Shown: positions 4,638-42,549, counted from the stretch's first letter. The stretch: DNA of 64,000 bases from an uncultured Bacteroidales bacterium (GCA_903885595.1 CAISJJ010000129.1:424-64423); one strand, 5' to 3'. Numbers and translations: made by a program. Notes: generated by a model not told the origin, from the sequence alone.

Positions 4638-4830
4638 TTTGAAAATTTGAAGATGTGAAGATGTGAAGATTTGGAAATGAGGTAATTATAGCAACAGATG
4701 CTGAGAATACCGTGATAATTATTAGTAGCGCTGGTTTTGATCTTTAATCTGTGGTTTTGATCTTTGATCTTTGAGTTTTGATTTTCATTTTTGGTTTTGA
4801 TTTTTGATTTTTAAGTTGTGGTTTTGCATT
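4638..4830. repeat. Intergenic 8-mer (TTTGAAGA/TGTGAAGA) array followed by TTTTGAT/TCTTTGA arrays
   Basis: 4638-4679 reads TTTGAAAA TTTGAAGA TGTGAAGA TGTGAAGA TTTGGAAA; 4733-4828 carries repeated GGTTTTGATCTTTGA / TTTTGAT units. Confidence 0.85.
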
Positions 4831-4873
4831 TTGCAATTATTTCACAGAGATAAACCCCAAATAAGAAAAAAAT

Positions 4874-6211
4874 ATGTCTTACGAAGAACGATTACAACAT
4901 GTTTCGGTATTGGGCGCCGCAGGGAAAATGGGAAGCGGTATTTTGCTGCTTACCGCGGTTGAAATGGCCGACATTAGCCTGAAGCCTGAAAATAAAGGAA
5001 AACCCTTTGTTCTGAATGCCATCGATGTTTCGGATGAAGCCCTGTCGGGGGTGATGAAATATTTAAAGGCCCAGGTTCTCAAAATGGCAGAGAAAAAGAT
5101 GGTAGGATTGCGGAAGGTCTATGCTGATCGTTCCGACCTGATCGACAATGATGAGATCATAGATCAGTACATTTTTGATGTCCTGACCCTTGTTCGACCA
5201 TCCACCAGGATAGAGGCGGCTTATGATTCGAAAATGATATTTGAGGCCATAAAAGAAGATCCTTCGTTAAAAAGCAGCATTTTTTCCAGGATCTCAGCCA
5301 ATAATCCTCATCAACCCTGGTTTTTTACCAACACCTCCTCCATCCCAATATCGAAGCTCGATGAGGATGCCGGTCTTGCCGGACGGATCATCGGGTTTCA
5401 TTTCTACAATCCGCCTGCCGTACAAAAGCTGGTCGAGATCATACGGGCTGAACATACCCTTCAGGAGGTGGAGGCATTTGCACAACAATATGCAAAAAAT
5501 CTGCGCAAGGTGGTAGTTCCTTCGCATGACAAAGCTGGCTTTATTGGCAATGGTCATTTTATGCGCGATATCCTGCATGCGGCCGGCGAAGTTGATAAGC
5601 TAAGCAAGGATTTCACCTTTGTTGAGGCGGTTTATGCTTTGAATAAAATCAGCCAGGATTACCTGGTTCGACCGATGGGAATTTTCCAGTTGATCGATTA
5701 TGTAGGCGTTGACGTTTGCAGTTTCATCATGTCGGTGATGAATCCGTACCTGCCTGGCGAAGAGCTGCACAGTCCGCTTCTCGACAAACTTCTTTCACTT
5801 GGGGTTAAGGGAGGTCAGTTTTCCGATGGTTCCCAGAAAGATGGCATTCTGAAGTATGAAAAGGGCCGGCCGGTTGCAATTTTCGATCCTGAAAAAAACA
5901 GCTATGTTGCGATCTCTGATTTCCAACCAAAGGTGGACGAAAAACTTGGCCCGATGCCTGTTCCTCCTGCCTGGAAGGCTGTTGTTGGCAGCAAAACAAA
6001 AGATGAACTGCTTCGCGGATATTTTGATCAGCTTAAATCGGCCTCAGGCCTTGGTGCAGGCCTGGCAAAAGATTATGCCAACCGTTCCTGTGCAATCGGA
6101 CTGCAACTTGTTACTTCCGGGGTTGCCTTCAACGAAAACGATGTAAATACCGTCCTGCTGACGGGTTTTTTCCATGCATATGGTCCTGTTAACAATTACC
6201 TGAATTCATAA
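4874..6211 (+). CDS. 3-hydroxyacyl-CoA dehydrogenase family protein
   Basis: Rossmann VLGAAGKMGSG, FEAIKE, TNTSSIPI, GFHFYNPP, GFIGN and MGIFQLIDYVGVD motifs. Confidence 0.92.
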   Translation: MSYEERLQHVSVLGAAGKMGSGILLLTAVEMADISLKPENKGKPFVLNAIDVSDEALSGVMKYLKAQVLKMAEKKMVGLRKVYADRSDLIDNDEIIDQYIFDVLTLVRPSTRIEAAYDSKMIFEAIKEDPSLKSSIFSRISANNPHQPWFFTNTSSIPISKLDEDAGLAGRIIGFHFYNPPAVQKLVEIIRAEHTLQEVEAFAQQYAKNLRKVVVPSHDKAGFIGNGHFMRDILHAAGEVDKLSKDFTFVEAVYALNKISQDYLVRPMGIFQLIDYVGVDVCSFIMSVMNPYLPGEELHSPLLDKLLSLGVKGGQFSDGSQKDGILKYEKGRPVAIFDPEKNSYVAISDFQPKVDEKLGPMPVPPAWKAVVGSKTKDELLRGYFDQLKSASGLGAGLAKDYANRSCAIGLQLVTSGVAFNENDVNTVLLTGFFHAYGPVNNYLNS

Positions 6212-6215
6212 ACTC

Positions 6216-7460
6216 ATGAAAAAGTTAAGACGCAAAGTATATATGGTGGCTGGGTATAATACCCTTTCAATGGGAACCGGCCGTAAGGAGTTCAGTCCAA
6301 AAAAGGAACGCCCCGGGTTGGAAGAATATATCAGGGAGGCTGGCCAGGGCACGCTGAGGTTGATCGGGGGTGCGCATCATGTGGATGAATGCGTGATCGG
6401 AAATTTCATGGCCTCACGTTTCAACAGGCAGGCCAACCTGGCTGCTTTTTTTCCTTATGTTGACGAAGGGTTACGCTATAAGCCGGCTATCAGGGTTGAA
6501 GGAGCTTGTGCAACCGGCGGGCTGGCGCTCATGAGTGGCATCAAAAGCGTACTGGCCGAAACGGCCGAGGTAGTACTTGTGATCGGCGTCGAGGTTCAGA
6601 ATACGGTAAAGGCCATCTATTGTGCTGATTATCTTGCCGGTGCAGGCTGGTTTAAGAACAGGAAAAACGGTCATGCCTATTTTTTCCCCGGGCAGTTCAG
6701 CGATCGTGCAGGGTCCTATTTCGAGAAATACGGAAGGGATAAAACCCGGCAGGCGCTTGCACGCTGGTTTCGCAATGCCATCGAAAATGCACGCCTTTGT
6801 CCTACGGCACAGGAGTATCATAACACAACAAAGGATCTTGATGCACTGGGGCTGACAGAACCCAATGGCCGGGCTTTTATCGATAATCTGAATGTGTTTG
6901 ATTGTTCCAAAGTATCTGATGGCGCTTCGGCTATTGCCATCGTTTCTGAAGAGGGATTAAAACGCTGTGGAATTCCTGCCGGAGAGGCGATTGAAGTAGT
7001 GGGATGGGGGCAGATAGAGGAGGACATTACCAAACCACCCATTGATCCCACAGAATTAAGTACAACAAAACAGGCTGTCAGGGAAGCCCTGTCTTCTGCC
7101 GGCATCACCCGTGAACAGATCGGGACAGCTGAAATTCACGATTGTTTCACTATTGCCGGTCTGATGTGTATGGAAGCCATTGGGTTTGCTGAAAAAGGCA
7201 AAGGCGCTGATTTTATTCTCGAAGGACATACATCCCGAACCGGGCGTGTTCCCGTCAACACAACGGGGGGGCTTATTGGGTGGGGACATCCCACGGGAGG
7301 CACCGGCGTTCACCAGGCGGTTACCATTCTGGAACAACTTACCGGCAAAGCCGGAGATGCCCAGGTTAACATTCCCGCCGATCGCCCATACGGCCTTACC
7401 GTGAATATGGGAGGGGACGATAAGTCGCTGGTTTCGATCGTGTATCGGAAAGGAAATTAA
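6216..7460 (+). CDS. Thiolase, SCP2-type
   Basis: RVEGACATGGLA nucleophile loop, EIHDCF, GHPTGGTG and C-terminal NMGGDD. Confidence 0.9.
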   Translation: MKKLRRKVYMVAGYNTLSMGTGRKEFSPKKERPGLEEYIREAGQGTLRLIGGAHHVDECVIGNFMASRFNRQANLAAFFPYVDEGLRYKPAIRVEGACATGGLALMSGIKSVLAETAEVVLVIGVEVQNTVKAIYCADYLAGAGWFKNRKNGHAYFFPGQFSDRAGSYFEKYGRDKTRQALARWFRNAIENARLCPTAQEYHNTTKDLDALGLTEPNGRAFIDNLNVFDCSKVSDGASAIAIVSEEGLKRCGIPAGEAIEVVGWGQIEEDITKPPIDPTELSTTKQAVREALSSAGITREQIGTAEIHDCFTIAGLMCMEAIGFAEKGKGADFILEGHTSRTGRVPVNTTGGLIGWGHPTGGTGVHQAVTILEQLTGKAGDAQVNIPADRPYGLTVNMGGDDKSLVSIVYRKGN

Positions 7461-7463
7461 TAC

Positions 7464-7607
7464 AAAACTCAAAATGCAAAATGCAAATGTTGAAATTGTA
7501 AAGAAGATTGGCCTTTGGAAAGCAAAGATTGAACAATATCTTTTTACGGGGCCTTACTAAGAATTGCTGTTTTGAACTTTGCATTTTTCACTTTGCAATT
7601 TGAATTT
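7464..7607. repeat. Inverted heptamer cassette (CAAAATG arm / TTTGCA-type arm)
   Basis: The left arm AAACTCAAAATGCAAAATGC matches the reverse complement of the right arm (AAATTCAAATTGCAAAGTGA) at 16/20 positions; spacer is about 65 nt. Confidence 0.8.
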
Positions 7608-7629
7608 ATTCAAACATCCATAATTCCCT

Positions 7630-8589
7630 TTGAAAAACCGGATAACCTCTCTCTTTGGCATTGATTTCCCAATCATCCAGGCCGGGATGATCTGGTGCAG
7701 TGGATGGCGGCTTGTTTCGGCTGTAAGTAATGCCGGCGGACTGGGATTACTTGGTGCGGGTTCAATGTCGCCAGGCTTGCTTAAAGAGCATATCGGAAAG
7801 TGTAAAGCAGCAACCAACAGGCCTTTTGGAGTTAACATCCCATTGCTTTATTCACTTGTTGATGAACAGTTCGATGTAATAATCCGTGAAGGAGTAAAGA
7901 TTGTTTTCACTTCAGCAGGGAATCCGGCAATCTGGACTTCCATATTGAAAACACATGGTATTACGGTTGTCCACGTAATCGCAAACGTTAAGTCGGCATT
8001 GAAATGCGAACAATCAGGCGTGGATGCCATTGTTGCTGAAGGGTTTGAGGCCGGCGGCCACAATGGTAAGGAAGAGACCACTACTTTAACGCTGATTCCG
8101 TTGATAAAGAAAGCTACCGCGTTGCCTCTGATCGCTGCCGGTGGTATCGCAAGCGGTCGAAGCATGCTGGCTGCATTTGCTCTTGGCGCCGAAGGGGTTC
8201 AGATAGGCAGCCGTTTTATTGCATCTGAAGAATCATCTGCACATCCCGCTTTCAAACAAAGGATTCTGGAAACCGGTGATGGCGGTACATCCCTGGCATT
8301 GAAAAAGGTTGTTCCTGTTCGACTGATCAGGAATTCTTTCTTTCAAAAGGTTCACCAACTGGAAGATTCCGGCGCTACTGCAGAAGAACTTAAAGAATTG
8401 CTTGGCAAGGGCCGGGCAAAACTCGGCATGTTCGATGGAAATTCAGAGGATGGTGAACTTGAAATCGGACAGGTTGCTGCATTAATCAGTCACATTCAGC
8501 CAGCAGGGGAAATCATCAGCGAAATTGTTGGTGAATTTGAAACAGCTAGAAAAGAACTCCTTGAATATCGAATATCGAATGTTGAATGA
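7630..8589 (+). CDS. FabK / nitronate monooxygenase family flavoprotein (enoyl reductase-like)
   Basis: PIIQAGM, GGLGLLGAG, VAEGFEAGGH, IAAGGIASG and GVQIGSRF motifs; TTG start. Confidence 0.9.
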   Translation: MKNRITSLFGIDFPIIQAGMIWCSGWRLVSAVSNAGGLGLLGAGSMSPGLLKEHIGKCKAATNRPFGVNIPLLYSLVDEQFDVIIREGVKIVFTSAGNPAIWTSILKTHGITVVHVIANVKSALKCEQSGVDAIVAEGFEAGGHNGKEETTTLTLIPLIKKATALPLIAAGGIASGRSMLAAFALGAEGVQIGSRFIASEESSAHPAFKQRILETGDGGTSLALKKVVPVRLIRNSFFQKVHQLEDSGATAEELKELLGKGRAKLGMFDGNSEDGELEIGQVAALISHIQPAGEIISEIVGEFETARKELLEYRISNVE

Positions 8590-8602
8590 TGAATGTCGAA
8601 GT
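8563..8602 (+). repeat. GAATRTC heptamer arm overlapping the 3' end of the FabK-like gene
   Basis: GAATATC GAATATC GAATGTT GAATGAT GAATGTC GAAGT; it encodes the last residues EYRISNVE and the TGA stop. Confidence 0.9.
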
Positions 8603-14544: not shown

Positions 14545-16617
14545 ATGAAAGAACAAGAAATTAGCCCGGACCACGCAACAAAACCTGAAGACCGGATTCG
14601 CTTTTCACAATTAGCCGCATATGGCGCCGGCGGGATAATCCCCATTGCCCTTTTCAACATTGCCGGAATCCTCGTTGGTTTGATGGGCAACATAAGTTTG
14701 GGACTGAGCGCATTCTGGCTTGGGGCAATTTTAATCGTCCCCCGTTTATGGGATGCCCTTTCTGATCCTTTTATCGGGCACCTGTCTGATAATACCCGGA
14801 CCCGCTGGGGACGCCGGCGTCCCTATCTGCTGATCGGCGGGATACTCGTCGCAGTGTTTTTTGTGGTCATCTGGTGGATTCCGAAGGGGGATATGGTGCG
14901 AACGTGGTTCCCGTCGGATACGGGGTTCCAATGGTTCCAGCTTGGCTATATCCTTTTTTCCCTTTTGCTGTTTTTTACTGCCGTCAATCTTTTCGAGATC
15001 CCTCACGGTGCCCTCGGCATGGAGATGACCACCGATTACCACGAACGCACCCGGCTGTTCAGCGCCAAGAGTTTTGTAGGCAATCTTTTTGCCATGGGCA
15101 CGCCCTGGCTTTTTGCCCTCGCCAGCATGGAAATTTTCAAAGGTCCCGGAGGAAATGAAGCCGATGGCATGCGTTACGTTTCATTGATGATCGCTGCTGT
15201 TCTGATCCCGCTTTCCTTCTGGTGGTTTTTCAAATTACGTGAACCGGGATTTGTAAAAGCTGCAAAGCATGAAAAAACACCCTTCTGGCAAGACATGAAA
15301 CATACCACCGGCAACCGGAACTTTATCATGCTGACACTGACGATCTTCACGCTGGCCATGGGCTTTAATTTCGTCCAGCTGATAGGGTCATATATCCCTA
15401 TTTTTTATGTTTTCGGGGGAGATAAGGTTGCCGGAGCTTACCTGCTCGCGATCAACGGGATGATCTGGGCCATCACCGGGGTACTGGCAGTATTTCCTCT
15501 TAACTGGATCAGCCCGAGGCTGGGTAAAAGAAATACGCTGACCATTGCTATTTTACTCATGTGCCTTGCACAACTGTCTAAAATTGTATGCTATAACCCT
15601 TCATATCCCTACCTGATCATCATCCCCACGGTGCTGCTTTCTGCCGGAATGCTGTTTTTCTTCACCCTGGGATCCTCCATGGTGGGCGATATCTGTGATG
15701 AAGATGAATTAAAGACAGGGTATCGTTCAGAGGGAAGTTATTACTCGGTATTCTGGTGGTTCATTAAAATGGGATCTGCCCTGGCCAGCTTTGTAACTGG
15801 CGTGTTGATCGTATTTACCATGTTCGATGAAACCCAGGTCACCAAGGTCGATAAGATACAGGGAAGCGTCAGGGAGATGCGAAGCATCGTTCAGTACTGG
15901 AAGGGATACCAGGGGCTCGGCAGCACCAATAAAGAGTGGCTGGAAAACACTAAAACCAAGACAGCCGAAGCGCTAACGGAATCAAAAGAATATATTACCT
16001 ATTTAGGCAAAGAATCCCTGAAAGAGCCTGATAAGGCGAATCAGATCCTGACCTCCTATCCGGATCAGCGGAAAAACATGCTTTCAAATGCACTTCTCAA
16101 AACACAGGTAACAGTCAATGAACTGGAACAGGTTCAATCGCTTCTGGCAAACCTGGTGCCCGGGACTCAGGACTCCCTGATGAATGCCGCCGTTGCAAAA
16201 GCAATCCCACTGACGCTGGAAACAAAACTTGTAAAAGCCAGGATGTATTCTTTTGAGCTCAGGTCGCACCTGGAAGCCAAATCACAGGAAACGAAAAACA
16301 GCAGGGAACACTATGATGTCATCATGCAGGAAATTTCCGGGGTAGACAGCCGGCTTGCCGTCATGAACACTGCATCATCCATGGTTTTGCTGGATAATGA
16401 ACTCGGCGCCATTGAAAGCAGAATCGTACCACTCACTCAGCAAACCCCGTATACACTTTTAATGATGCGTGTGGTTGAGATTGGATTGCCCCTGCTGTTG
16501 AGCCTCTTTTCAATCTTCTTTGTTATGAAGTACTCACTGACGGAGAAACGGAGTCACGAGATTAAGGATTTGCTCAGGGAAAGAAACGTGACGCGTGACG
16601 AAAATCGTGACACGTGA
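14545..16617 (+). CDS. MFS sugar transporter (GPH/MelB family) with a large loop insertion
   Basis: RLWDALSDPFIGHLSDNTRTRWGRRRPY, EMTTDYHERT and SMVGDICDEDEL..G.RSEGSY motifs; about 200 hydrophilic residues lie between the last two TM helices. Confidence 0.88.
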   Translation: MKEQEISPDHATKPEDRIRFSQLAAYGAGGIIPIALFNIAGILVGLMGNISLGLSAFWLGAILIVPRLWDALSDPFIGHLSDNTRTRWGRRRPYLLIGGILVAVFFVVIWWIPKGDMVRTWFPSDTGFQWFQLGYILFSLLLFFTAVNLFEIPHGALGMEMTTDYHERTRLFSAKSFVGNLFAMGTPWLFALASMEIFKGPGGNEADGMRYVSLMIAAVLIPLSFWWFFKLREPGFVKAAKHEKTPFWQDMKHTTGNRNFIMLTLTIFTLAMGFNFVQLIGSYIPIFYVFGGDKVAGAYLLAINGMIWAITGVLAVFPLNWISPRLGKRNTLTIAILLMCLAQLSKIVCYNPSYPYLIIIPTVLLSAGMLFFFTLGSSMVGDICDEDELKTGYRSEGSYYSVFWWFIKMGSALASFVTGVLIVFTMFDETQVTKVDKIQGSVREMRSIVQYWKGYQGLGSTNKEWLENTKTKTAEALTESKEYITYLGKESLKEPDKANQILTSYPDQRKNMLSNALLKTQVTVNELEQVQSLLANLVPGTQDSLMNAAVAKAIPLTLETKLVKARMYSFELRSHLEAKSQETKNSREHYDVIMQEISGVDSRLAVMNTASSMVLLDNELGAIESRIVPLTQQTPYTLLMMRVVEIGLPLLLSLFSIFFVMKYSLTEKRSHEIKDLLRERNVTRDENRDT

Positions 16618-16661
16618 CAAAAAACGTGACGCGTGACGCGTGACAAAAAAACAAGTGACAA
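16587..16661 (+). repeat. CGTGACR heptamer array spanning the MFS stop and ending at the GH35 start
   Basis: CGTGACG x2, CGTGACA x2, CGTGACG x2, CGTGACA, then AGTGACA immediately before ATG 16662. Confidence 0.9.
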
Positions 16662-32100: not shown

Positions 32101-34581
32101 CTGGCATTTGATACCATTTTTGCCGAAGGGCAGAACCGTTTCCTGGAAAGCTTCTCTCCTTATGTGCGAAGTCGCATCGGGCTTAAGGAAAAGGCCGATT
32201 TTGAAAACATTTCCGGACTTACACCCACGTTTGCTGTCGACCAGGGTGGCACCAGCCGGAATTCTCGTTCCACCGTAGGAACCATGACAGGTATCTATGA
32301 CCATTACCGGCTTTTATTCTCGCGCATCGGGAGAAAGGAGGAGGGGAAGGAATCTCGAATATCGAATATTGAATATCGAATGTCGAAGTCTGACCCTGAC
32401 CAGCAGAATGGCAAAATCGTAAATCGTAAATCGTATATCGTAAATCCTCCGCCTTCCTCCAGTCTCTTTTCCTTCAACCACAAGCATGGCGCTTGCCCCG
32501 ATTGCGACGGATTGGGTTTGCTAACGGTTTGTGATCCGGAAAAATTGATTACCCACCCTGGGAGATCCTTGGTGGATGGCGCCATGGATGGTACCAAGAC
32601 CGGGAAATTCTATGGCGATCCATATGGGCAGTATGTGGCCACCCTCAAAGAAGTCGGCGTTCAACATGGCATTGATTTTAACCACACATGGGATTTACTT
32701 TCGAGAGAGGCAAAGGAGATTGCTTTGTATGGAACCGGAGAGGAGATGTACCAAGTTACCTGGGAATTCAAACGGGATGGCCGCATCGGGGAACATCACT
32801 TTACAGGACCCTGGAAAGGAATGGTGACCCTAGTCAATGAAGAATACAGCCGTAAACATGCCGACCATCGGGGCGAAAGCATGATATCGCTCATGAAATC
32901 TGGACCATGTCTTTCCTGTTCTGGGACAAGGTTGCGAAAGGATGCACTGGAGTATGTCGTTCAGGGAAAAAATATTGCTGAGGTTTCGGCGCTGTCGGTT
33001 TCGGCATCGGTCACCTTCTTTAAATCTTTGCTGCCTCAGCTATCAAATTCAATGGAAGTGGAGTCTGCCAAACCACTGATTGGTGAAATTTTACGGAAAC
33101 TAGAGTTTCTATCCGGACTTGGCTTATCATACATTACCATCGACCGCATTTCTTCTACCTTGTCGGGTGGCGAATCCCAACGCATCAGGCTGGCCGGGCA
33201 GCTTGGCTCAGGCCTGACCGGTATCACCTATGTTCTTGATGAACCTACCATCGGACTTCATCCCAGGGATACAGCTAAACTGATGAAACTAATCCGTTCA
33301 CTGCAGGAAAAAGGCAATACTGTCGTAATTGTTGAACACGACAGGGATGTCATCCTCTCAGCCGATTACATCCTTGACATCGGTCCTGGCGCCGGAAAAA
33401 CCGGCGGAACCGTGGTGGCAGCAGGAACACCATCCGAAATTATGAATAATCCCGCTTCAGTAACTGGTCCCTATCTTTTGGAACAGTCAGGCATTTTGCC
33501 TTTGAAAACTTCATCGAAAGCCCTCACGGGGTTAAGCGATGATCTTTCTGCCCAGTCTCGTAGTTTGTCTCTTGGTACTTTCTCAAGCGGGGCCATGGCA
33601 AGTGATAGTCTGAAATCAACCAGGATCAGCCGGAAAAGTATCGGATATTGCCATCGAAACCTGAAACCCGGGCTGGTCATAAGGAATGCCTTTGCCAATA
33701 ATCTTAAGGGTTTCGATCTTGAAATTCCCTCTACCGGGATAATTGCCATCACCGGCGTGTCGGGCAGTGGGAAATCCACTCTGCTATTTGAAGTGATACT
33801 TGCCTCCTGGGAAAATAACAGGCCTGTCGGATGTTCCGGCATTGATGGATTTGAACATTTTCAGCAAATCATCAGCGTTCATCAGCGCACAGGCTTTAAC
33901 TCCTCCCTTGCCACACCGGCCACTTATACTGGTGTTTTCGATCATATCCGCGACCTGTTCGCCGCTTTGTCTGATGCAAAACAATCGGGGGTTGGTAAAA
34001 GCGCTTTTTCATACCTGAATAAGGAGGGGAGATGCGCAACATGTGCCGGTGCAGGTCAGATCCGTATTTCCATGGATTTTCTGTCGGATGTGAATACCCC
34101 ATGTGAACAATGCCAGGGAAAGCGATACAATTCTGAAATCCTTTCATTCCGTTATCAGGAGCACAATATTGCAACCGTTCTGGAGATGACGGTTGCAGAA
34201 GCAGCTCTTTTTTTTAACGGTCATAAGAACATTTCACATAAACTTCAAATGCTTGACAAGGTGGGATTGGGTTACCTCCGGATCGGACAATCCCTTGAAA
34301 CACTTTCGGGAGGTGAATCTCAGCGCCTGGCACTGGCAGCCGAACTGATGAACCCGGGGAAGGGATCCGCATTATACCTGTTTGAGGAACCTTCGACCGG
34401 GCTTCATTTTCGCGATATTGAATTTTTAATGACGTTATTCCATCAACTGGCCGATCAGGGGAATACTTTGCTTGTAATTGAACATGATCCGATGATCATC
34501 GCTCATGCCGACCATGTAATTGAACTAGGGCCTGATGGAGGCGACCAGGGAGGATACCTGGTAAACGTCTCTTCGCCTTGA
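29107..34581 (+). CDS. uvrA: Double-length UvrA-family ABC ATPase (two fused class II-like UvrA units)
   Basis: Four Walker A motifs (GVSG[S/A]GKS[S/T]), four LSGGE[S/A]QR signatures, four [D/E]EP..GLH Walker B motifs and Zn-finger CxxC pairs; 1824 aa. Confidence 0.92.
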   Translation: MPSSESIKITNASEHNLRSVSLEFPKNKLIVVTGVSGSGKSSLIFDVLYREAESRYLGSFSSFARQFMGKLKKPAVEKVDGLSPAIALDQKSVVSNPRSTVGTITGIYDSLRLLFARIGHLPDKGVPFPLNRSLFSFNSPEGACPGCKGIGVEDFLDPELLIADQNRTLRQGALKITAPNGYIIYSQVTLDVLDQVCRSEGFHIDIPWKDLTPEQKNIVLYGSDKIEIPYGKHPLESRMKWSGITAKPRELGFYKGILPVMEVILQRDRNKNILRFVRSGQCKACGGRRLNDKALSVKIPGESTIVHEIRHADENTVHGFDGTIHADEKTIQAYEDTIHEEEGTIPEYEGTILPLNKKEPTFLKSYNIAELAALQLDDLQSVLRGIHFEKPDQMIAGPIVTQISKQVDLLKRLGLCYLTTDRDSTTLSGGESQRLRMATQAGTGLSGLICIFDEPSVGLHQHDIKNLIDILKEIRDKGNTVIVVEHEEEFMHHADWLIDIGPGPGTNGGEVLFNGTLEMARTLSDTEIRKSRTFSFLFGFEKFEGGIPRSGPIPMDCNGKRVLPEAGFITIEGASARNLRNIDVTFMLQALNVVTGVSGAGKSTLTNHILGAFLNNKLHDANEDVGKHLEIKGWERIGKLISIDQAPIGRTPRSNPATYTGLFDYIRDLYARLPLAISRGYDKSRFSFNTAGGRCESCQGAGYQQVGMHFMGNVEVLCEACEGRRFDDETLEITCSGYGGYISSPPELTQNNHFDAGVTPKPGKNISEVLEMTVAEALSFFSDEPKIARYLGTLDSLGLGYLTLGQRSSTLSGGEAQRIKLATELAKPQSDHTLYIMDEPTTGLHQADTGILLKALDRLIKQGHTVILIEHHLGLIAAADHIIDLGPGSGRDGGRLIFSGSPEEMINCKDSFTAEALNEYRILNNEYRISKFFSNENQGVSTILSQGNSFDVRHSTFDIQPSISLKGISTNNLKHIDAIIPHNKITVITGVSGSGKSSLAFDTIFAEGQNRFLESFSPYVRSRIGLKEKADFENISGLTPTFAVDQGGTSRNSRSTVGTMTGIYDHYRLLFSRIGRKEEGKESRISNIEYRMSKSDPDQQNGKIVNRKSYIVNPPPSSSLFSFNHKHGACPDCDGLGLLTVCDPEKLITHPGRSLVDGAMDGTKTGKFYGDPYGQYVATLKEVGVQHGIDFNHTWDLLSREAKEIALYGTGEEMYQVTWEFKRDGRIGEHHFTGPWKGMVTLVNEEYSRKHADHRGESMISLMKSGPCLSCSGTRLRKDALEYVVQGKNIAEVSALSVSASVTFFKSLLPQLSNSMEVESAKPLIGEILRKLEFLSGLGLSYITIDRISSTLSGGESQRIRLAGQLGSGLTGITYVLDEPTIGLHPRDTAKLMKLIRSLQEKGNTVVIVEHDRDVILSADYILDIGPGAGKTGGTVVAAGTPSEIMNNPASVTGPYLLEQSGILPLKTSSKALTGLSDDLSAQSRSLSLGTFSSGAMASDSLKSTRISRKSIGYCHRNLKPGLVIRNAFANNLKGFDLEIPSTGIIAITGVSGSGKSTLLFEVILASWENNRPVGCSGIDGFEHFQQIISVHQRTGFNSSLATPATYTGVFDHIRDLFAALSDAKQSGVGKSAFSYLNKEGRCATCAGAGQIRISMDFLSDVNTPCEQCQGKRYNSEILSFRYQEHNIATVLEMTVAEAALFFNGHKNISHKLQMLDKVGLGYLRIGQSLETLSGGESQRLALAAELMNPGKGSALYLFEEPSTGLHFRDIEFLMTLFHQLADQGNTLLVIEHDPMIIAHADHVIELGPDGGDQGGYLVNVSSP
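30046..30171 (+). repeat. In-frame 21-nt tandem repeat x6 inside uvrA
   Basis: ENTVHGF DGTIHAD EKTIQAY EDTIHEE EGTIPEY EGTILPL; DNA core ACCATCC. Confidence 0.85.
31861..31984. repeat. In-frame inverted GAATRTC cassette in the uvrA inter-unit linker
   Basis: Five heptads + GAAGT, about 50 nt spacer, then TTCGATGTTCGACATTCGACATTCGATATTC. Confidence 0.9.
32350..32445 (+). repeat. In-frame GAATRTC arm plus AAATCGT array inside uvrA
   Basis: Five heptads + GAAGT (32350-32389); AAATCGT x3 ATATCGT AAAT (32414-32445). Confidence 0.9.
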
Positions 34582-36113: not shown

Positions 36114-36803
36114 ATGAACAAAATAGTAAACAATGCCCTGGAGGCAATCAAAGGGATAGAGAGCAATATGAGCTTGATGTTGGGCGGCTTTGGCTTATGC
36201 GGGATCCCCGAAAACTGCATTGCAGCATTAGCTGCAAGTGATATAACTGGTTTAACCTGCATTTCGAACAATGCCGGGGTCGATGGATTTGGGCTTGGTA
36301 TGTTATTACGCCACCACCAGATCAGGAAAATGATCTCATCATATGTTGGAGAGAATAAGGAATTTGAGCGTCAACTGCTCAGCGGGGAGCTTGAAGTAGA
36401 ATTGATTCCACAAGGAACCCTTGCCGAACGTATCAGGGCAGGAGGGGCAGGTATCCCGGCTTTTTTTGTCCCGGCAGGTTTCGGAACCGAAGTAGCCGAA
36501 GGAAAACCTGTAAGGGAGTTCGACGGTAAAATGTATTTGGAAGAACGCTGGCTGAAAGCTGATTTCGCCATTGTCAAGGCATGGAAAGGGGATACCTACG
36601 GAAATCTTATTTACAGGCATACTGCCAATAACTTCAACCAGGCCATGGCCACCGCCGGCAGAATCACTATTGCTGAGGTGGAGGAGCTTGTCCCGGCCGG
36701 AACCCTCGATCCCGACCACATCCATACTCCCGGTGTATTTGTCCAGCGCATTTTCCAGGGAAGCAACTATGAAAAACGAATCGAATTCGCCACAACCCGC
36801 TAA
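36114..36803 (+). CDS. scoA: 3-oxoacid CoA-transferase subunit A
   Basis: GGFGLCGIPEN, ISSYVGEN, PQGTLAERIRAGGAGIPAF and NFNQAMATAG motifs. Confidence 0.92.
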   Translation: MNKIVNNALEAIKGIESNMSLMLGGFGLCGIPENCIAALAASDITGLTCISNNAGVDGFGLGMLLRHHQIRKMISSYVGENKEFERQLLSGELEVELIPQGTLAERIRAGGAGIPAFFVPAGFGTEVAEGKPVREFDGKMYLEERWLKADFAIVKAWKGDTYGNLIYRHTANNFNQAMATAGRITIAEVEELVPAGTLDPDHIHTPGVFVQRIFQGSNYEKRIEFATTR

Positions 36804-36828
36804 TATGCCGCACACAAATTATAATTCC

Positions 36829-36910
36829 TCACTTGTCATTCGTCACTCGTCATTGGTAATTGGTCATTAGTCATTTTTCATTTGTAAATCGTACCTCGTA
36901 AATCGTAAAT
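36829..36910 (+). repeat. Composite CAYTNGT + AAATCGT heptamer array between scoA and scoB
   Basis: CACTTGT CATTCGT CACTCGT CATTGGT AATTGGT CATTAGT ... AAATCGT ACCTCGT AAATCGT. Confidence 0.9.
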
Positions 36911-36918
36911 TTTCTCCC

Positions 36919-37575
36919 ATGGGTTTAGATAAAAATGGAATAGCAAAACGAATCGCCAGGGAACTCCACGACGGTTATTATGTTAACCTGGGCATAGGAA
37001 TACCGACCCTGGTAGCCAATTACATTCCTGCCGGAATGCAGATTGTGCTCCAGTCGGAAAACGGCTTGCTCGGCATCGGACCGTACCCTTCAAAAGATGA
37101 TATCGATCCCGACCTGATCAATGCAGGAAAGCAAACCATTACGGCACTGCCGGGGGCAGCTTTCTTCGATTCAGCAGCAAGTTTCGCCATGATCCGGGGC
37201 GGACATATTGATCTCACCGTCCTGGGTGCCTTTGAAGTATCGGAAACCGGCGATATCGCTTCCTGGAAGATTCCCGGGAAGCTTGTGAAGGGCATGGGAG
37301 GCGCCATGGACCTGGTTGCATCGGCCAGGAATATCATTGTGGCCATGATGCACACCAATCCGCAAGGGGAATCAAAATTGCTGAAGAAATGCACCCTGCC
37401 GCTGACCGGTGTCGGGGTTGTCAAACGTATCGTTACCGACCTGGCAGTCGTAGACGTAACGCCCATGGGGTTCAAACTGATTGAACGTGCTCCCGGGGTA
37501 TCTGTTCAGGAAATCATTAATGCAACTGAGGGTAACCTCATCGTTGAAGGAGAAATCCCGGAAATAGCTATTTAA
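36919..37575 (+). CDS. scoB: 3-oxoacid CoA-transferase subunit B
   Basis: [17 protein letters not shown] (catalytic Glu), MIRGGHID and GMGGAMDLV motifs. Confidence 0.93.
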
Positions 37576-37578
37576 AAT

Positions 37579-37745
37579 GAATGTCGAATGTCGAATATCG
37601 AATAACGAATATCGAATAACAAACCCATTATTTAGAAAATCTAAAATCCTAAAATGTTACCAGCAATTCGTCACTCGTCATTAGTAATTAGTCATTTGTC
37701 ACTTGTCATTCGTAAATCGTAAATCGTAAATCGTATATCGTAAAT
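37579..37745 (+). repeat. Composite GAATRTC + CAYTNGT + AAATCGT array between scoB and hmgA
   Basis: Six GAATNNC heptads right after the stop; a CAYTNGT block; AAATCGT x3 ATATCGT AAAT ending 4 nt before the ATG. Confidence 0.92.
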
Positions 37746-37749
37746 TACC

Positions 37750-38907
37750 ATGTCTCACTACTTTTCCCTCGGCCAGATTCCCCGAAAACGGCATGTTGTA
37801 TTCCGCAAACCCGACGGAGGCCTTTATGCCGAACAGCTGGTTTCAACGGAGGGTTTTTCCGATGTCTATTCCCTGGTATATCATTGTCATCCGCCAACCG
37901 TGGTGACAAAAATTGATGAGGCATATTCCATTGCCCCGAAAATAGCCGATCCGAAAAATATGCAACACCGGCTTTTTCGCGGATTTGATGCTGTGCCGGC
38001 CGATGATTACCTCGAAAGCCGCATTCCAATGCTGGTCAACAGCGATTGTCAAATCAGTCTGGCTGCCCCGCGAAAATCGATGAGCGATTATTACTTTAAA
38101 AATTCCGGGGCCGATGAGATGATCTTTATCCATCGCGGCGAAGGCACCTTGAAAACCATGTATGGAAACATTCCTTTCAGTTATGGTGATCATTTGGTCA
38201 TTCCGCGCGGTGTAATCTATCAGATTGAATTCCGCGCTTCCGACAACAGGCTTTTCATTCTCGAATCATTTACCCCGCTTCGCTTCCCGAAACGATACCT
38301 CAATAAATCCGGGCAACTGCTTGAGCACGCACCGTTTTGTGAGCGCGACATCCGTAAGCCGCAGGTACTGGAAACCCATGATGAGAAAGGAGATTTCCTT
38401 GTCAGGATCAAGCGGGAAGATATGATATGGCCTTACCATTTTGCTACACATCCCTTCGATCTGGTTGGCTGGGATGGGTTTCATTATCCATTTGCTTTTT
38501 CCATTCATGACTTTGAGCCTATCACCGGCCGCTTGCATCAGCCGCCCCCGGTTCATCAGACTTTTGAAACCCCGTCTTTTGTGGTTTGCGCTTTTGTTCC
38601 CCGGTTGTATGATTACCATCCCGACTCTATCCCGACTCCATACAACCACAGCAATGTCGATTCGGATGAAGTGCTTTATTACGTGGATGGCGATTTCATG
38701 AGCCGGAACAATATAAAGCCCGGGAATATAACCCTGCACCCGACAGGGATCGTGCACGGTCCGCATCCGGGTGCAGTAGAGCGGAGCATCGGGGCAAGAG
38801 AGACAAAGGAACTCGCGCTGATGGTCGATACGTTTAAACCGCTTAAGATTACGGAACAGGCGTTTGCCGTTGAAGATCCTGACTATTACAGGTCATGGTT
38901 TGTGTAA
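37750..38907 (+). CDS. hmgA: Homogentisate 1,2-dioxygenase (short bacterial type)
   Basis: PFDLVGWDG, HQPPPVHQTF, PYNHSNVDSDEVLYY and HPTGIVHGPHPG iron-site motifs. Confidence 0.93.
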   Translation: MSHYFSLGQIPRKRHVVFRKPDGGLYAEQLVSTEGFSDVYSLVYHCHPPTVVTKIDEAYSIAPKIADPKNMQHRLFRGFDAVPADDYLESRIPMLVNSDCQISLAAPRKSMSDYYFKNSGADEMIFIHRGEGTLKTMYGNIPFSYGDHLVIPRGVIYQIEFRASDNRLFILESFTPLRFPKRYLNKSGQLLEHAPFCERDIRKPQVLETHDEKGDFLVRIKREDMIWPYHFATHPFDLVGWDGFHYPFAFSIHDFEPITGRLHQPPPVHQTFETPSFVVCAFVPRLYDYHPDSIPTPYNHSNVDSDEVLYYVDGDFMSRNNIKPGNITLHPTGIVHGPHPGAVERSIGARETKELALMVDTFKPLKITEQAFAVEDPDYYRSWFV

Positions 38908-38913
38908 AAGGTG

Positions 38914-39005
38914 AATGCAGGCAATGCAGGCAATGAATGGCAATGAAGGCAATGAAGGCAGGCAATGAAGGCAATGCATACAAGGAAATAATACAGGCAA
39001 TGAAG
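38914..39005 (+). repeat. 9-mer GGCAATGMA array downstream of hmgA
   Basis: About seven GGCAATGCA/GGCAATGAA units. Confidence 0.88.
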
Positions 39006-39112
39006 AAAACCAAGGGAATCCAGTTAATTTCATCCAAGCTTGAAATGAAAAAATGACAGTTAATAACAAACATAATGTGACTAAAGCGCTCAATATCAAA
39101 CAGTTTTATAAA

Positions 39113-39130
39113 CCCGGACTGAAGTCCGGG
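39113..39130. repeat. REP-like perfect palindrome
   Basis: CCCGGACT-GA-AGTCCGGG followed by ACAATTGA. Confidence 0.7.
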
Positions 39131-39192
39131 ACAATTGATAATCAATCGATAGCATTATTACAACATCAGATCCGATACTTTTTGGAGTAGGC

Positions 39193-39237
39193 TCAATCTT
39201 CAAATCCCCAAATCCTCAAATCTTCAAATTTTCAAAT
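39193..39237. repeat. 8-mer CAAATCYT array before hppD
   Basis: Its reverse complement begins ATTTGAAAATTTGAAGAT, identical over 18 nt to 4637-4654. Confidence 0.85.
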
Positions 39238-39248
39238 CATAAAAAGAC

Positions 39249-40349
39249 ATGACTCCTAAAGATGATTTTCTTCCGATAAACGGAACCGATTATGTTGAGT
39301 TTTATGTGGGCAATGCCAAGCAGGCCGCCCATTTCTATCAAACCGCATTTGGATTTCAGCCGTTAGCCTATGCCGGGCTGGAAACCGGGTTGAAGGACCG
39401 CACCTCTTATGTGATCCGGCAGGAAAAGATCACATTTGTTTTCACAACTGCATTGATCCCTGATTCACCCATCGCCGATCATTGTAAATTACACGGAGAT
39501 GGAGTCAAGGTGATAGCCCTGTGGGTTGATGATGCCCTTAAATCATTTGACGAGACTACCAATCGGGGCGCTAAACCCTATCTGCAACCCATTGTTGAAA
39601 AAGATGACCAAGGTATGGTGGTGTTGTCAGGAATTCACACATATGGCGAAACGGTGCATGTTTTTGTAGAACGGAAAAATTATAATGGCGTTTTCCTGCC
39701 AGGATTCGTAAAATGGGATCCTTTGTACCGCCCTGAACCGGCCGGATTGCTCTACGTTGACCATATAGTCGGCAATGTGGATTGGGGACAAATGGATACG
39801 TGGGTAAATTTTTATCACGACGTATTGGGGTTTGACCAGCTGATCTCCTTCGACGACAAGGATATTTCAACCGAATACACAGCCTTGATGAGCAAGGTGG
39901 TGGCAAGCAGGAATCTTTATATCAAGTTTCCGCTGAATGAACCTGCCCGTGGAAAGAAAAAATCGCAGATCGAGGAGTACATCGATTTCTACAGAGGTGC
40001 AGGCGTACAGCATGTTGCCATGGCCACGAACAACATCCTGAAGACAGTTGCTGATCTGAAAAGCCGCGGGGTGGAGTTTCTACGGGTTCCTGATAAATAT
40101 TACGACCTGCTCCTCCAGCGCGTGGGGACCATCGATGAAACCATTGAACCGCTGCGTGAACTTGGCATCCTGGTCGACCGGGATGAAGATGGTTACCTGT
40201 TGCAGATTTTCACCAAGCCGGTTGAGGACCGCCCCACCGTTTTCTATGAAATTATACAGCGTAAAGGCGCCAAATCATTTGGGAAAGGCAACTTTAAGGC
40301 ACTGTTCGAATCAATCGAACTGGAACAGGGAAGAAGAGGAACCTTGTAG
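39249..40349 (+). CDS. hppD: 4-hydroxyphenylpyruvate dioxygenase
   Basis: DHIVGNV, SQIEEY, GAGVQHVA, GYLLQIFT and FYEIIQRKGAKSFGKGNFKALFESIE motifs. Confidence 0.97.
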   Translation: MTPKDDFLPINGTDYVEFYVGNAKQAAHFYQTAFGFQPLAYAGLETGLKDRTSYVIRQEKITFVFTTALIPDSPIADHCKLHGDGVKVIALWVDDALKSFDETTNRGAKPYLQPIVEKDDQGMVVLSGIHTYGETVHVFVERKNYNGVFLPGFVKWDPLYRPEPAGLLYVDHIVGNVDWGQMDTWVNFYHDVLGFDQLISFDDKDISTEYTALMSKVVASRNLYIKFPLNEPARGKKKSQIEEYIDFYRGAGVQHVAMATNNILKTVADLKSRGVEFLRVPDKYYDLLLQRVGTIDETIEPLRELGILVDRDEDGYLLQIFTKPVEDRPTVFYEIIQRKGAKSFGKGNFKALFESIELEQGRRGTL

Positions 40350-40379
40350 AATAACGAATATCGAATGTCGAATTACGAA
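40349..40379 (+). repeat. GAATNNC heptamer array between hppD and fahA
   Basis: GAATAAC GAATATC GAATGTC GAATTAC starting on the hppD stop. Confidence 0.85.
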
Positions 40380-40398
40380 ATGGACTTAATATAGGAAG

Positions 40399-41673
40399 AT
40401 GATAAAAGTAATAGACCCTGGGTTGAAGTCCTGGATTGACGTAAAGGAATACTGCGATTTTCCAATTCAGAACATTCCATTCGGAATTTTTAAGACTCCC
40501 GGAGGGCATGCAAGGGTTGCAACTCGGATAGGCGATACTATTATAGATCTTAATGCTCTTGCAAAGCATGGGTTTTTGGGCGATTTGGACATTGACCCGG
40601 TCATTTTCAGTTCGGAGATTCTCAACCCGCTAATGGTCCTGGGCAAACCAATCTGCCGGGCGTTACGCAACCGAATTGCCGATATCTTTGAAAAAAGCAA
40701 CGTTTCCCTTCGCGATCATCCTGAAATTCAACGCAAGATCCTGTTCCCACTGAATGCCGTTCAGATGCTGATGCCTGTTCAGGTTGGTGATTACACCGAT
40801 TTTTACTCCAGCATTGAACATGCCACAAACGTTGGAATAATGTTCCGTGATCCGGCAAATGCATTGTTGCCCAACTGGAGGCATCTCCCCGTGGGTTACC
40901 ATGGCAGGAGTTCATCCATTGTTGTTTCCGGTACCAATATTCACCGGCCCAAGGGACAAACAAAGGCTGTTACAGCAGAAGTTCCTGAGTTTGGCCCTTC
41001 AAAACAGGTTGATTTCGAACTTGAAATAGCCTTTGTCACCTGTAAAAAAACCAAACTTGGACAATCTGTTTCCACAGCAGATGCAGAAGATCATGTTTTT
41101 GGCCTGGCATTATTCAACGATCTTTCGGCCCGGGATATTCAGGCCTGGGAATATGTTCCGCTGGGTCCGTTTCTGGCGAAAAATTTTGGTTCAGTAGTCT
41201 CTCCATGGATTGTCACGCTTGATGCCCTGGAACCATTCCGTGTACCGGGTCCTAAACAGGAACCGGCTGTGCTTGCTTATTTGCATGCGGAGGGAGCCCA
41301 TAATTTTGATATTCAGCTGGATGTGCTGATTAAGCCAGAAAGGCAGGAGGAACATCAGGTTTGCCACTCTAACTACAAATACATGTATTGGAATCTGGCC
41401 CAGCAACTGGCACATCAAACGGTGAATGGTTGCAATATCAACGTTGGCGACCTGTATGGCTCCGGAACCATAAGCGGACCCACACCCGATTCATTTGGCT
41501 CCATGCTCGAAATTGCCTGGAAGGGAACCCGGCCTGTGAAAATGCCGGACGGGACCGAACGAAAATTCATCAATGATAACGACACCATCATCATGCGAGG
41601 ATACTCCATTAAGGATAACCTGCGGATCGGATTTGGCGAAGTCTCCACGAAAATATTACCCGCCCTGCCCTAA
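40399..41673 (+). CDS. fahA: Fumarylacetoacetase
   Basis: DFPIQNIPFG, GDYTDFYSSIEHA, PVGYHGRSSS, DFELE, NDLSARDIQAWEYVPLGPF and SGTISG motifs. Confidence 0.96.
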   Translation: MIKVIDPGLKSWIDVKEYCDFPIQNIPFGIFKTPGGHARVATRIGDTIIDLNALAKHGFLGDLDIDPVIFSSEILNPLMVLGKPICRALRNRIADIFEKSNVSLRDHPEIQRKILFPLNAVQMLMPVQVGDYTDFYSSIEHATNVGIMFRDPANALLPNWRHLPVGYHGRSSSIVVSGTNIHRPKGQTKAVTAEVPEFGPSKQVDFELEIAFVTCKKTKLGQSVSTADAEDHVFGLALFNDLSARDIQAWEYVPLGPFLAKNFGSVVSPWIVTLDALEPFRVPGPKQEPAVLAYLHAEGAHNFDIQLDVLIKPERQEEHQVCHSNYKYMYWNLAQQLAHQTVNGCNINVGDLYGSGTISGPTPDSFGSMLEIAWKGTRPVKMPDGTERKFINDNDTIIMRGYSIKDNLRIGFGEVSTKILPALP

Positions 41674-41704
41674 AATCCCTGATAATGAATACTGCCACCA
41701 CCTA

Positions 41705-41815
41705 TTCATCATTCATCACTTGTCCCGCGTCCCGCGTCCCGTGTCCCGTTTCATACGTCCCGTGTCCCATGTCCCGCGTCCCGATTATTTGTCAATCATA
41801 ATTCGTAATTCGTAA
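41705..41815 (+). repeat. CGYGTCC heptamer array between fahA and the flavin reductase gene
   Basis: TTCATCA x2, CGCGTCC/CGTGTCC x~6, AATTCGT x2 directly before ATG 41816. Confidence 0.9.
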
Positions 41816-42451
41816 ATGAGCTCCACCCCCTACCTCCACTTCGATCCCACCGAAACCTCCATCCCGAAGTTTCACCACCTTATGCTCGGGGCAATTGCAC
41901 CACGCCCGATTGCACTTGCAAGTACCATTGATAATGAGGGGAGACCTAACCTTTCCCCTTTCAGTTTTTTCAATGCATTTGGAGCCAATCCGCCCATCAT
42001 CGTTTTTTCTCCGTCAAGACGTGGTGTCGACAATACAACCAAGCATACCTATGAAAATGTAAAAGAGGTGCCTGAAGTGGTCATCAACGCGGTTACCTAT
42101 GAAATGATTCAGAAAGTAAGCGATTCCAGCGCTGATTTTCCAAAGGGGGTCAATGAATTCGAGATGGTGGGATTCAAAATGGAACCATCTGATCTTGTCA
42201 GACCCTTCAGGGTAAAGGAATCACCGGTTCAGTTTGAATGCAAGGTGCTCCAGATAATTGAAACAGGTATGGGAAATGCCGCAGGGAACCTGGTCATTTG
42301 CGAGATCTTACGGATCCATGTCAATCCGGAGGTAATGGATGAATACGGAAGGATTGACCAACAGAGGATTGACCTGGTCGGAAGAATGGGGGGGGAGTAT
42401 TACGTCAGGGCTCAGGGACCATCACTTTTCGAACTTGCTAAACCACAGTAA
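41816..42451 (+). CDS. Flavin reductase-like (DIM6/NTAB family) FMN-binding protein
   Basis: IAPRPIALAST, NLSPFSFFN, KHTYENV, VKESPVQFECK and VGRMGGEYY motifs. Confidence 0.9.
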   Translation: MSSTPYLHFDPTETSIPKFHHLMLGAIAPRPIALASTIDNEGRPNLSPFSFFNAFGANPPIIVFSPSRRGVDNTTKHTYENVKEVPEVVINAVTYEMIQKVSDSSADFPKGVNEFEMVGFKMEPSDLVRPFRVKESPVQFECKVLQIIETGMGNAAGNLVICEILRIHVNPEVMDEYGRIDQQRIDLVGRMGGEYYVRAQGPSLFELAKPQ

Positions 42452-42481
42452 ATTCAGGGTGGCTCAAAAGTCAAATTTTAA

Positions 42482-42549
42482 TGCTAAGACACTAAGACGC
42501 GAAAAGAACATGATTGATTTTCAATTATTTGTCCATTAGTGTCTTGGCA
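42482..42549. repeat. Inverted repeat (CTAAGACAC family)
   Basis: 14-bp stem TGCTAAGACACTAA / TTAGTGTCTTGGCA with one G-U pair and a 40-nt loop. Confidence 0.75.

Follow-up and report, generated by a model that had tools for sequence, protein, structure and literature searches.

Introduction

Tandem repeats with a seven-nucleotide unit have been described from several bacteria, as GGGAATC in Xanthomonas, GGGGAYT in Nostoc and the short tandemly repeated repetitive (STRR) sequences in Calothrix, and the function of these heptameric simple sequence repeats (SSRs) is unknown (PMC4692102, Rehm et al. 2015). Heptamers are also known from ribosomal RNA: the intervening sequence (IVS) of the 23S rRNA of Coxiella burnetii carries them in tandem in its stem (GACAGAT x3), where the first copy holds the RNase III site and the number of copies differs among strains (PMC4990558, Warrier et al. 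2016). Here we analyse a stretch of 64,000 nucleotides from an uncultured Bacteroidales bacterium (the window), in which short tandem arrays fill gene junctions, and relate these arrays to the four-helix-bundle (4HB) gene family TIGR02436/PF05635 (S23p), whose members are bracketed by arrays elsewhere in the genome. On balance, we lean towards regarding the window arrays as gene-less members of a family of heptamer-armed 4HB or IVS-type cassettes, accompanied by products of unit slippage.

The Coxiella IVS (also that of Leptospira) is the closest case in print, sharing with the 4HB cassettes the layout of a PF05635/S23p open reading frame (ORF) in the loop of a stem formed by inverted flanks. 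Heptamers in the stem and a decay-prone ORF are further common traits, and for the IVS mobility or horizontal transfer has been proposed without a known enzyme. Unlike the 23S rRNA IVS, the elements of the present genome are located between or inside protein-coding genes, have arms of up to ~300 nt and occur by the hundreds in gene-less or one-armed form. Within the window, inverted flanks are found at four sites (with fold z of -4.9 to -8.4 at two of them) and at none of the operon junctions at 36-42 kb; the stems of the 4HB cassettes contain tandem heptamers, and in the window no PF05635/TIGR02436 ORF lies between the arms.

Repetitive extragenic palindromic sequences and bacterial interspersed mosaic elements (REP/BIME) are extragenic palindromes at the 3' ends of genes, present in hundreds of copies. 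REPs are single conserved palindromes, and the associated RAYT gene, which is bracketed by inverted repeat copies, encodes a Y1 transposase of the HUH type. The arms described here are, in contrast, built of tandemly repeated units of more than 100 types, and none of the three Y1_Tnp genes of the genome has flanking arrays. Rickettsia palindromic elements (RPE), for which we know of no associated gene family, are palindromes of 100-150 nt and of unique sequence, not heptamer arrays; they lie in frame in ORFs and are translated as extra peptide segments, and some arrays of the present genome are likewise tolerated in frame inside ORFs and translated.

The Xanthomonas and Nostoc SSRs resemble our arrays in many respects: they are 7-nt tandem repeats, ~90% intergenic, close to the upstream ORF and rare between divergent genes, they often form convergent inverted pairs (70-75 in Xanthomonas), and their positions are conserved between species with differing lengths. 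An excess of tandem heptamers, an intergenic location near the end of the upstream ORF and a kept position with variable copy number were all found in the present case as well. However, those SSRs consist essentially of one G-rich, quadruplex-capable unit, whereas more than 100 unit families, mostly not G-rich, exist here; and no link to a gene family was made for them (PMC4692102, Rehm et al. 2015), whereas our arrays are linked to 4HB genes.

Source and methods

The window (C129:424-64423) belongs to a 6.02-Mb assembly of 547 contigs with 44% GC (coded G000), which originates from lake-water metagenomes. Arrays were detected with Tandem Repeats Finder (TRF) in both window and genome; the genome-wide set is non-redundant and holds periods of 6-10 with at least three copies. 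A local first-order Markov shuffle served as the chance baseline, for which TRF rows with at least three copies were compared. The gene calls were crude (4572 ORFs, 85.8% coding, leaving 14% non-coding DNA), array density per genome was sampled in random 80-kb pieces, and 4HB loci from other phyla were gathered with a single protein as the query. An Rfam scan of arrays and 4HB leaders returned no known RNA family, only tRNAs. Logan unitigs of sequencing runs, including one metatranscriptome, break at the arrays.

Four-helix-bundle genes between inverted arrays

The genome contains 14 TIGR02436 (4HB) and five GxxExxY genes. Inverted arrays bracket 10-12 of the 14 4HB genes, with a unit upstream and its reverse complement downstream, and this unit is specific to the locus (TGCAAAA/TTTTGCA, AGTTCCC/GGGAACT, ACGTGAC/GTCACGT, TAGCGAAA/TTTCGCTA and others). 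No other gene recurs between same-unit inverted arrays in this genome. A first-pass annotation, made from the window alone, had stated that both gene families often sit between such arrays; this was right for TIGR02436 and failed for GxxExxY, of which one gene in five has flanking arrays, ruling it out as cargo in this genome.

The same layout extends far beyond the genome. When one 4HB locus was taken from each of 30 other Bacteroidales families, 26 of them had flanking arrays; among 31 loci from at least 12 other phyla, an array was present upstream in 27, downstream in 24 and on both sides in 21, and the period was 7 in 51 of the 65 arrays counted there. Complementarity of the arms within a 4HB locus is greatly above that between loci. 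The arms furthermore travel with the gene: the paralogues at C131 and C303 (71% identical) share CGGGACR, and the one at C166 (71% identical to that at C131) has CGTGACR. Five of the eight unit families that the first-pass annotation had named in the window (GAATATC, CGTGACR, CGYGTCC, AAAATGC and a GGCAATGMA-like one) are among the arm units of resident 4HB cassettes.

The 4HB proteins of the genome match PF05635 and, weakly, bAvd (PF22296), and their nearest relatives are from uncultured Bacteroidales and one Draconibacterium metagenome-assembled genome. The nearest solved structure is that of Xanthomonas XCC0516 (PDB 2GSC, E = 3e-30), deposited with five chains; this relative has been described as a homopentameric ring (PMC4990558), and PF05635 has been called functionally uncharacterised (PMC11270868). 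Our literature search yielded no paper tying PF05635 genes outside rRNA to flanking heptamer arrays.

Two of the 14 4HB genes (G000:C412:36189-36506 and C412:10738-11043) have an in-frame TAA and are therefore probably decaying, similar to the ORF decay reported for the Coxiella IVS. Seven copies (G000:C166, C116, C131, C453, C356, C303 and C412:10738) share an upstream leader, TTACCTTT...TTTTCYGATWAAGCRGAAAA, containing a small hairpin whose stem sequence differs among copies. As a conserved promoter-like element this leader was rejected, being present in a subset of the copies of this genome and not seen in other families of the order. Counts of reverse transcriptase and Y1 transposase genes do not follow array density, and both were dismissed as drivers.

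One junction across the genus

The 4HB cassette at G000:C412 is located between two conserved genes, and the orthologous junction was taken from 35 congeneric genomes. Six of them are in the filled state, [GGCARTA]n-4HB-[TAYTGCC]m. One genome (G083) carries an internal-deletion derivative in which the same arms enclose only the leader and the 3'-terminal ~50 nt of the 4HB ORF, the single case found here in which a gene-bearing element is internally deleted as in MITEs (miniature inverted-repeat transposable elements). Another (G016) has a precise empty site, GAGTACTTTG|CCTCATATAAATAAC, in which the two flanks of the cassette of G010 are joined. The junction of the remaining genomes is occupied by other combinations of arrays, of which there are at least six, or by a palindromic MITE, or is bare, as in G084 with its array-free gap of 7 nt. 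The palindromic element, in G093 and G082, is G/C-rich, of the CCTCCCC..GGGGAGG type, and resembles MITE-like families.

The junction states are scattered over the tree of the upstream gene, with unlike content in five well-supported pairs of sisters. Between G010 and G085, identity is 94.8% over 793 nt of aligned upstream flank and 100% over 52 nt downstream, yet the junctions are entirely different, and the difference extends into the last codons of the upstream gene. That one junction occurs filled, deleted and empty means that gene-less arms can derive from a 4HB cassette, as its footprints, and that turnover is fast, the junction content being replaced as blocks. These states do not show the direction of events. 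Reading the window arrays as possible empty footprints of a repeat-flanked cassette, as had been suggested from the sequence, thus holds in kind: at C412, and not at a window locus, filled counterparts with a 4HB gene between the arms are present in relatives, and the window itself holds no detectable relic of the gene.

Abundance and placement in the genome

Genome-wide, 1183 non-redundant arrays were found, 767 with period 7 and 291 with period 8. TRF rows in the real sequence outnumber those in the shuffled one by 792 to 37 for period 7 (~21-fold), 308 to 19 for period 8 and 50 to 14 for period 9; periods 5 and 6 are near expectation. Fully intergenic arrays number 857, in a genome with 14% non-coding DNA, and 229 are inside ORFs; among period-7 arrays the intergenic share is 77%.

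An array is present in 15.4% of co-directional, 16.4% of convergent and 12.5% of divergent gaps, taking up 6.1%, 5.5% and 2.5% of the gap DNA, respectively. As arrays are as frequent in convergent as in co-directional gaps, they are not operon-specific, and the enrichment in co-directional gaps that a role in operons had led the first-pass annotation to look for does not exist; there is depletion in divergent gaps only. The proposed start at a stop codon, on the other hand, is borne out. In the window, seven of the ten junction blocks begin within 5 nt of the stop; across the genome, the median distance from the upstream stop to the first array is 11 nt against 29 nt under random placement in the same gaps, and the first array is at most 5 nt away in 144 of 360 gaps, where random placement gives 71. 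An end at the next ATG is seen at about five window junctions and is not enriched genome-wide (median 39 vs 38 nt), a weak test given the crude calls of start codons. From the gap types and the stop distances it follows that arrays belong to gene 3' ends and not to operon junctions as such.

No fixed grammar of array types within gaps was found in the genome, the combinations being very diverse. Two MITE-like families of ~310-330 nt (G000:C56:5371-5674 and G000:C110:62067-62397; also at junctions in L119 and L136) share gaps with arrays, have 29 and 58 BLAST hits, and one has an internal palindrome, CCCCTTCTCCTC..GAGAAGGGG.

Arrays in the window

TRF located about 22 arrays at about 12 sites between 4.6 and 42.6 kb, ten of them gene junctions and two inside an ORF:

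4636-4679, + strand: array of 8/16-nt period, TGAAGATG type; begins 4 nt past the stop codon of an enoyl-CoA hydratase gene
4732-4832, + strand: array of 7/20-nt period, TTTGATC type; upstream of the gene at 4874
7455-7610, + strand: gene-less hairpin (TRF rows 7459-7487 and 7571-7612)
8563-8600, + strand: GAATATC array; gives the NMO-like gene 7687-8589 its last codons and stop
16584-16645, + strand: CGTGACR array of period 7/19; spans the stop of ORF 14545-16617 and ends 16 nt before the ATG at 16662
23486-23618, - strand: gene-less hairpin (TRF rows 23487-23522 and 23584-23617), the best such hairpin in the window
31860-31985, + strand: hairpin pair (GAATATC)n...(GATATTC)n in the double UvrA (TRF rows 31861-31898 and 31952-31991)
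32350-32446, + strand: (GAATATC)5, spacer and (AAATCGT)5 in the second UvrA half (TRF rows 32350-32387 and 32414-32446)
36824-36910, + strand: one 7-nt-phased run, TCAYTNG drifting to TAAATCG; fills the scoA-scoB gap
37579-37745, + strand: composite of (GAATRTC)6, spacer, (ATTCGTC-like)7 and (AAATCGT)5 (TRF rows 37579-37618 and 37666-37745)
38912-39238, + strand: 9-mer array (GGCAATGMA)n, 218-nt spacer and 8-mer array (AATCYTCA)n (TRF rows 38912-38976 and 39195-39238)
40349-40379, + strand: (GAATATC)4 array; overlaps the hppD stop codon
41704-41815, + strand: (ATTCATC)2, (GTCCCGY)9 and (TAATTCG)2.4; end at the ATG of a flavin-reductase-like gene
42477-42554, + strand: inverted repeat, unit of CTAAGACA type; lies in the gap that precedes the aromatic amino acid hydroxylase gene

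The first-pass annotation fared well on the arrays as such and needed correction on their number and placement. TRF found arrays at every place it had named, and its units were reproduced (GAATATC, AAATCGT, ATTCGTC/CAYTNGT, AATGCAA, CGTGACR, GTCCCGY, AATCTTCA/TTTGAAGA and GGCAATGAA); the claimed minimum of 14 intergenic gaps shrinks to the above sites, of which 31861-31991 and 32350-32446 are in frame inside ORF 29107-34581. The 18-nt reverse complementarity between the arrays at 4637 and 39237 (ATTTGAAAATTTGAAGAT) was read correctly from the sequence and joins 4636-4679 to part of 39195-39238, and the stretch from 44.4 to 64 kb, said to be array-free, has just weak TRF rows and tiny gene gaps.

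The long inverted pairs that had been noticed number four, with arms of 33, 35, 33 and 19 nt. In the hairpin 7455-7610, (AAAATGC)n at 7455-7487 faces (GCATTTT)n at 7578-7610 across a 90-nt loop, with 79% complementarity over 33 nt; a thiolase gene ends with its stop codon overlapping the left arm, and the unit also forms the arms of the 4HB cassette at G000:C520. The arms 23486-23520 and 23584-23618, (AATTACC/AATGACC)n, are 94% complementary over 35 nt with a 63-nt loop, and the hairpin sits between a tRNA gene (23377-23450) and the stop of gene 23617-24600. The distance to this tRNA gene is 36 nt; in genomes of two other families (L015, L036) tRNA genes lie ~100-200 nt from 4HB genes. The third pair, 31860-31892 and 31953-31985, is 82% complementary over 33 nt, and the fourth, 42477-42495 and 42536-42554, 84% over 19 nt. 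The latter hairpin (CTAAGACA/AGTGTCTT-type unit) resembles the 9-nt arrays flanking the sole array-flanked GxxExxY gene, G000:C169:7941-8418. RNA pairing between 4732-4832 and 4636-4679 is possible through G-U pairs only.

Units of unpaired window arrays recur in cassettes as well, CGTGACR of 16584-16645 in the arms at G000:C166 and GTCCCGY of 41704-41815 in those at G000:C131 and C303. In the operon at 36.1-44.4 kb (scoA, scoB, hmgA-like, hppD, fumarylacetoacetase, flavin-reductase-like and aromatic amino acid hydroxylase genes), arrays take up most of five of the six junctions, the sixth, before the hydroxylase gene, having the short inverted repeat only. The composite 37579-37745 fills the scoB-hmgA-like gap from 3 nt past the stop to 4 nt before the ATG; in 38912-39238 the 9-mer array begins 4 nt past the stop and the 8-mer array ends 10 nt before the ATG of hppD.

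Outside these sites, a 21-nt unit in 2.9 copies (GTTTTACATTTCGTTAACACA) lies at 49086-49145 in a divergent gap; it is unrelated to the heptamer arrays and may be an operator set. In lake metagenome runs (X1-X3), k-mers of the arrays at 36663-37767, 39094-39314 and 41525-41966 reach 10-400x the depth of the flanking genes; the units must therefore be abundant across numerous loci, or numerous organisms, of the community.

The window junctions in relatives

The tyrosine-catabolism operon was compared in nine genomes. At a given junction the unit family is often kept, in five to seven of them and across ~85% protein identity, with differing copy numbers: the CAATGCARA 9-mer family follows hmgA in seven genomes, GAATATC follows hppD in six of nine, and AAATCGT precedes scoB in five. 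Some junctions in relatives hold other units. The congeneric genome G017 also has this operon, its junctions being array-free and 33-55 nt long, and short gaps without arrays are likewise found there in a genome of another family. Array density per 100 kb amounts to 17.6 in the genome under study, 17.5 in G012, 3.2 in G005, 1.2 in G018 and 0 in G017, and to 0-5 in other families regardless of their number of 4HB genes.

Arrays in coding sequence

The ORF 29107-34581 (1824 aa) encodes a fused double UvrA with two class-II-like halves that lack the UvrB-binding insert, a fusion conserved across the genus (1650-1750 aa). Its inter-domain linker is the translated hairpin pair 31860-31985, in frame, and the linker peptide KEYRILNNEYRISKFF...GNSFDIQHSxFNIQYSI is conserved in five congeneric genomes; it has the appearance of an intergenic hairpin that later turned coding. 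In the second half, the segment after LLFSRIG is a hypervariable loop, which derives from arrays in three genomes. In the (AAATCGT)n run at 32350-32446, TATATCG stands in place of the unit that would bring a TAA into frame. Two positions of the window, 32414 and 37714, and no others share a 32-mer that includes a unique variant unit, which points to copying between loci. Genome-wide, 99 arrays of period 7 or 8 lie at least 150 nt deep inside long ORFs, some of which may be artificial fusions owing to the crude gene calls.

The UvrA-like gene has a further insert of 64 aa (~30040-30230), derived from a 21-nt (7-aa) tandem repeat at 30070-30163 and TIHxDE-like, which is found in the gene of this genome only and is absent in all aligned congeners.

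Folding and operon control

Hairpins are formed at some of the sites only. The region 23480-23625 has z = -8.4 on the sense and -10 on the antisense strand, 31850-32000 has -4.9, and 32335-32460 and 16575-16665 about -3. The junctions 36801-36921, 37573-37752, 40340-40401 and 41671-41818 lack structure (z from +2.9 to -0.9), the run 36824-36910 being less structured than its shuffles (z = +2.9), and a search for terminator-like sites in the operon junctions at 36-42 kb found none. Post-transcriptional control of operon stoichiometry, the other reading offered by the first-pass annotation, is therefore not supported, given the missing co-directional excess, the mostly unstructured junctions without terminators and the array-free operon junctions of G017, and nothing points to a dedicated operon-control system. 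Of the interpretation as a whole, the footprint half is supported in kind and the operon half is not.

Origin of the arrays

According to the cassette reading we favour, the window would represent a lineage-specific bloom of 7-8-nt (some 9-nt) arrays of the same kind as the arms of 4HB cassettes, with the gene-bearing form at 14 other loci of the genome and the window having gene-less forms only. Its four hairpin pairs would be 'empty' cassettes, and the roughly fifteen solo or composite arrays partnerless arms that may since have grown, shrunk and drifted by slippage of units and been copied between loci. The arrays would be DNA insertions at gene 3' ends, often replacing the last codons and supplying the stop. 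They would persist where harmless, being depleted in divergent promoter gaps and accepted within coding sequence as long as they keep the frame and contain no stop. We infer that the window arrays descend from the cassettes or were spread by the same process. By analogy with the rRNA IVS, paired arms may fold in transcripts and be cut (RNase III) or protected, and solo arrays would mostly be passengers.

Several observations weigh against this reading. No 4HB ORF or relic is detectable in the window contig, so the window elements can be gene-less derivatives at most. Same-unit inverted pairs number only 91 among the 1183 arrays, most arrays being unpaired, and in this fragmented assembly no 4HB partner exists for the largest family, AAATCGT with 82 arrays. 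Arm units and free arrays overlap by 46% at one mismatch, which is not stringent because the unit families are large. Array density is not linked to 4HB copies (17.6 per 100 kb with 14 genes in G000, 3.2 with 10 in G005, 1.2 with 11 in G047), and copy number was discarded as a predictor of free arrays. At the C412 junction, the empty site of G016 and the filled one of G010 share only TTG, with no clear target-site duplication; no transposase is linked to the arrays, no movement was observed, and the filled and empty states allow a second reading, in which the cassette was present ancestrally and the palindrome was deleted repeatedly. Several unit families have an orientation bias relative to transcription, which hints at selection on the transcript and is not explained by a pure-passenger view.

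Ordinary slippage might account for the arrays, if heptamers, favoured by the replicase as has been proposed for the heptamer excess of bacteria in general, arose in place as SSRs from proto-repeats near stop codons and 4HB genes merely landed in or beside them. We consider this possible, if doubtful. A heptamer SSR excess in many bacteria and the same position bias in Xanthomonas and Nostoc (PMC4692102) are in its favour, as are copy numbers that differ at every orthologous junction, the gradual drift from one unit to another in the 36824-36910 run, and the independence of array density from 4HB copies. The array-free G084 ends ...GCACAATAGCAATATG where six genomes, G000 included, have a GGCAATA-armed cassette, and this end could be a proto-repeat of the unit. 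However, slippage leaves unexplained why matched reverse-complement, locus-specific arms surround one gene family in at least 12 phyla, why the arms co-diverge with the protein, why whole cassettes are present or absent, why unit families recur at unrelated junctions (AATGCAAAC at two of them), and why density ranges at least 10-fold among congeners with presumably very similar replication machinery. If the arrays were instead cognate binding sites of pentameric 4HB proteins, each paralogue having its own heptamer within one trans-acting system, the 7-nt period that accompanies PF05635 in all phyla sampled, the related units of related paralogues, the kinship to the nucleic-acid-binding accessory protein bAvd of diversity-generating retroelements and the homopentameric ring described for the closest solved relative (PMC4990558) would fall into place. 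But density is not tied to gene number, two of the 4HB genes carry in-frame stops, the Coxiella protein appears not to be made and is decaying (PMC4990558), and the largest unit family lacks a gene partner, which makes this improbable in our view.

Highly improbable seems a role as functional REP/BIME-like RNA elements that would set cistron expression by stabilising mRNA, by offering processing sites or by closing all three frames before a restart. The arrays do start at stop codons, unit families are kept at junctions across ~85% protein identity, stop codons occur in the units more often on the sense strand (187) than on the antisense one (131; p = 0.002), in addition to the orientation bias of several families, and AAATCGT arrays lie 0-15 nt before start codons in several genomes. 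Against such elements speak the lack of enrichment in co-directional over convergent gaps, the absence of structure in most operon arrays, which are not terminator-like, the junctions of close relatives that are array-free or hold unrelated units, and the arrays inside ORFs; the excess of stop codons is small and may stem from the composition of the strands. Pairing shows no asymmetry between the strands: among 91 4HB loci the sense strand is the more stable in 48 and the antisense strand in 42 (p = 0.49, a comparison diluted by background pairing), and the 18 empty hairpins have 27 sense and 26 antisense G-U pairs.

Significance

Heptamer repeats are over-represented in many bacterial genomes with no accepted cause, and PF05635 is a large family of unknown function. 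A bolder proposal, which we hold to be unlikely, would make PF05635 genes and heptamer arrays one pan-bacterial system, in which a structure-defined hairpin cassette enters and leaves transcribed junctions (rRNA helices, cistron boundaries, protein loops), the pentamer recognises its own 7-nt unit, and gene-less arms account for the heptamer excess. If this were true, stop-free array sequence would also give rise to new linkers in proteins and to fused genes, the double UvrA being an example. The genus offers a natural experiment for such questions, with at least 35 genomes, one junction that is filled, deleted, empty or replaced, and an at least 10-fold range of array density. Whether arrays spread as cassettes, whether the protein reads its own repeat and whether the hairpins affect transcripts can now be tested. 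Breaks in assemblies and falsely extended or fused ORFs in such genomes are explained by the arrays, which matters for annotation, and the in-frame arrays provide a concrete route from the insertion of a repeat to a protein linker and a gene fusion.

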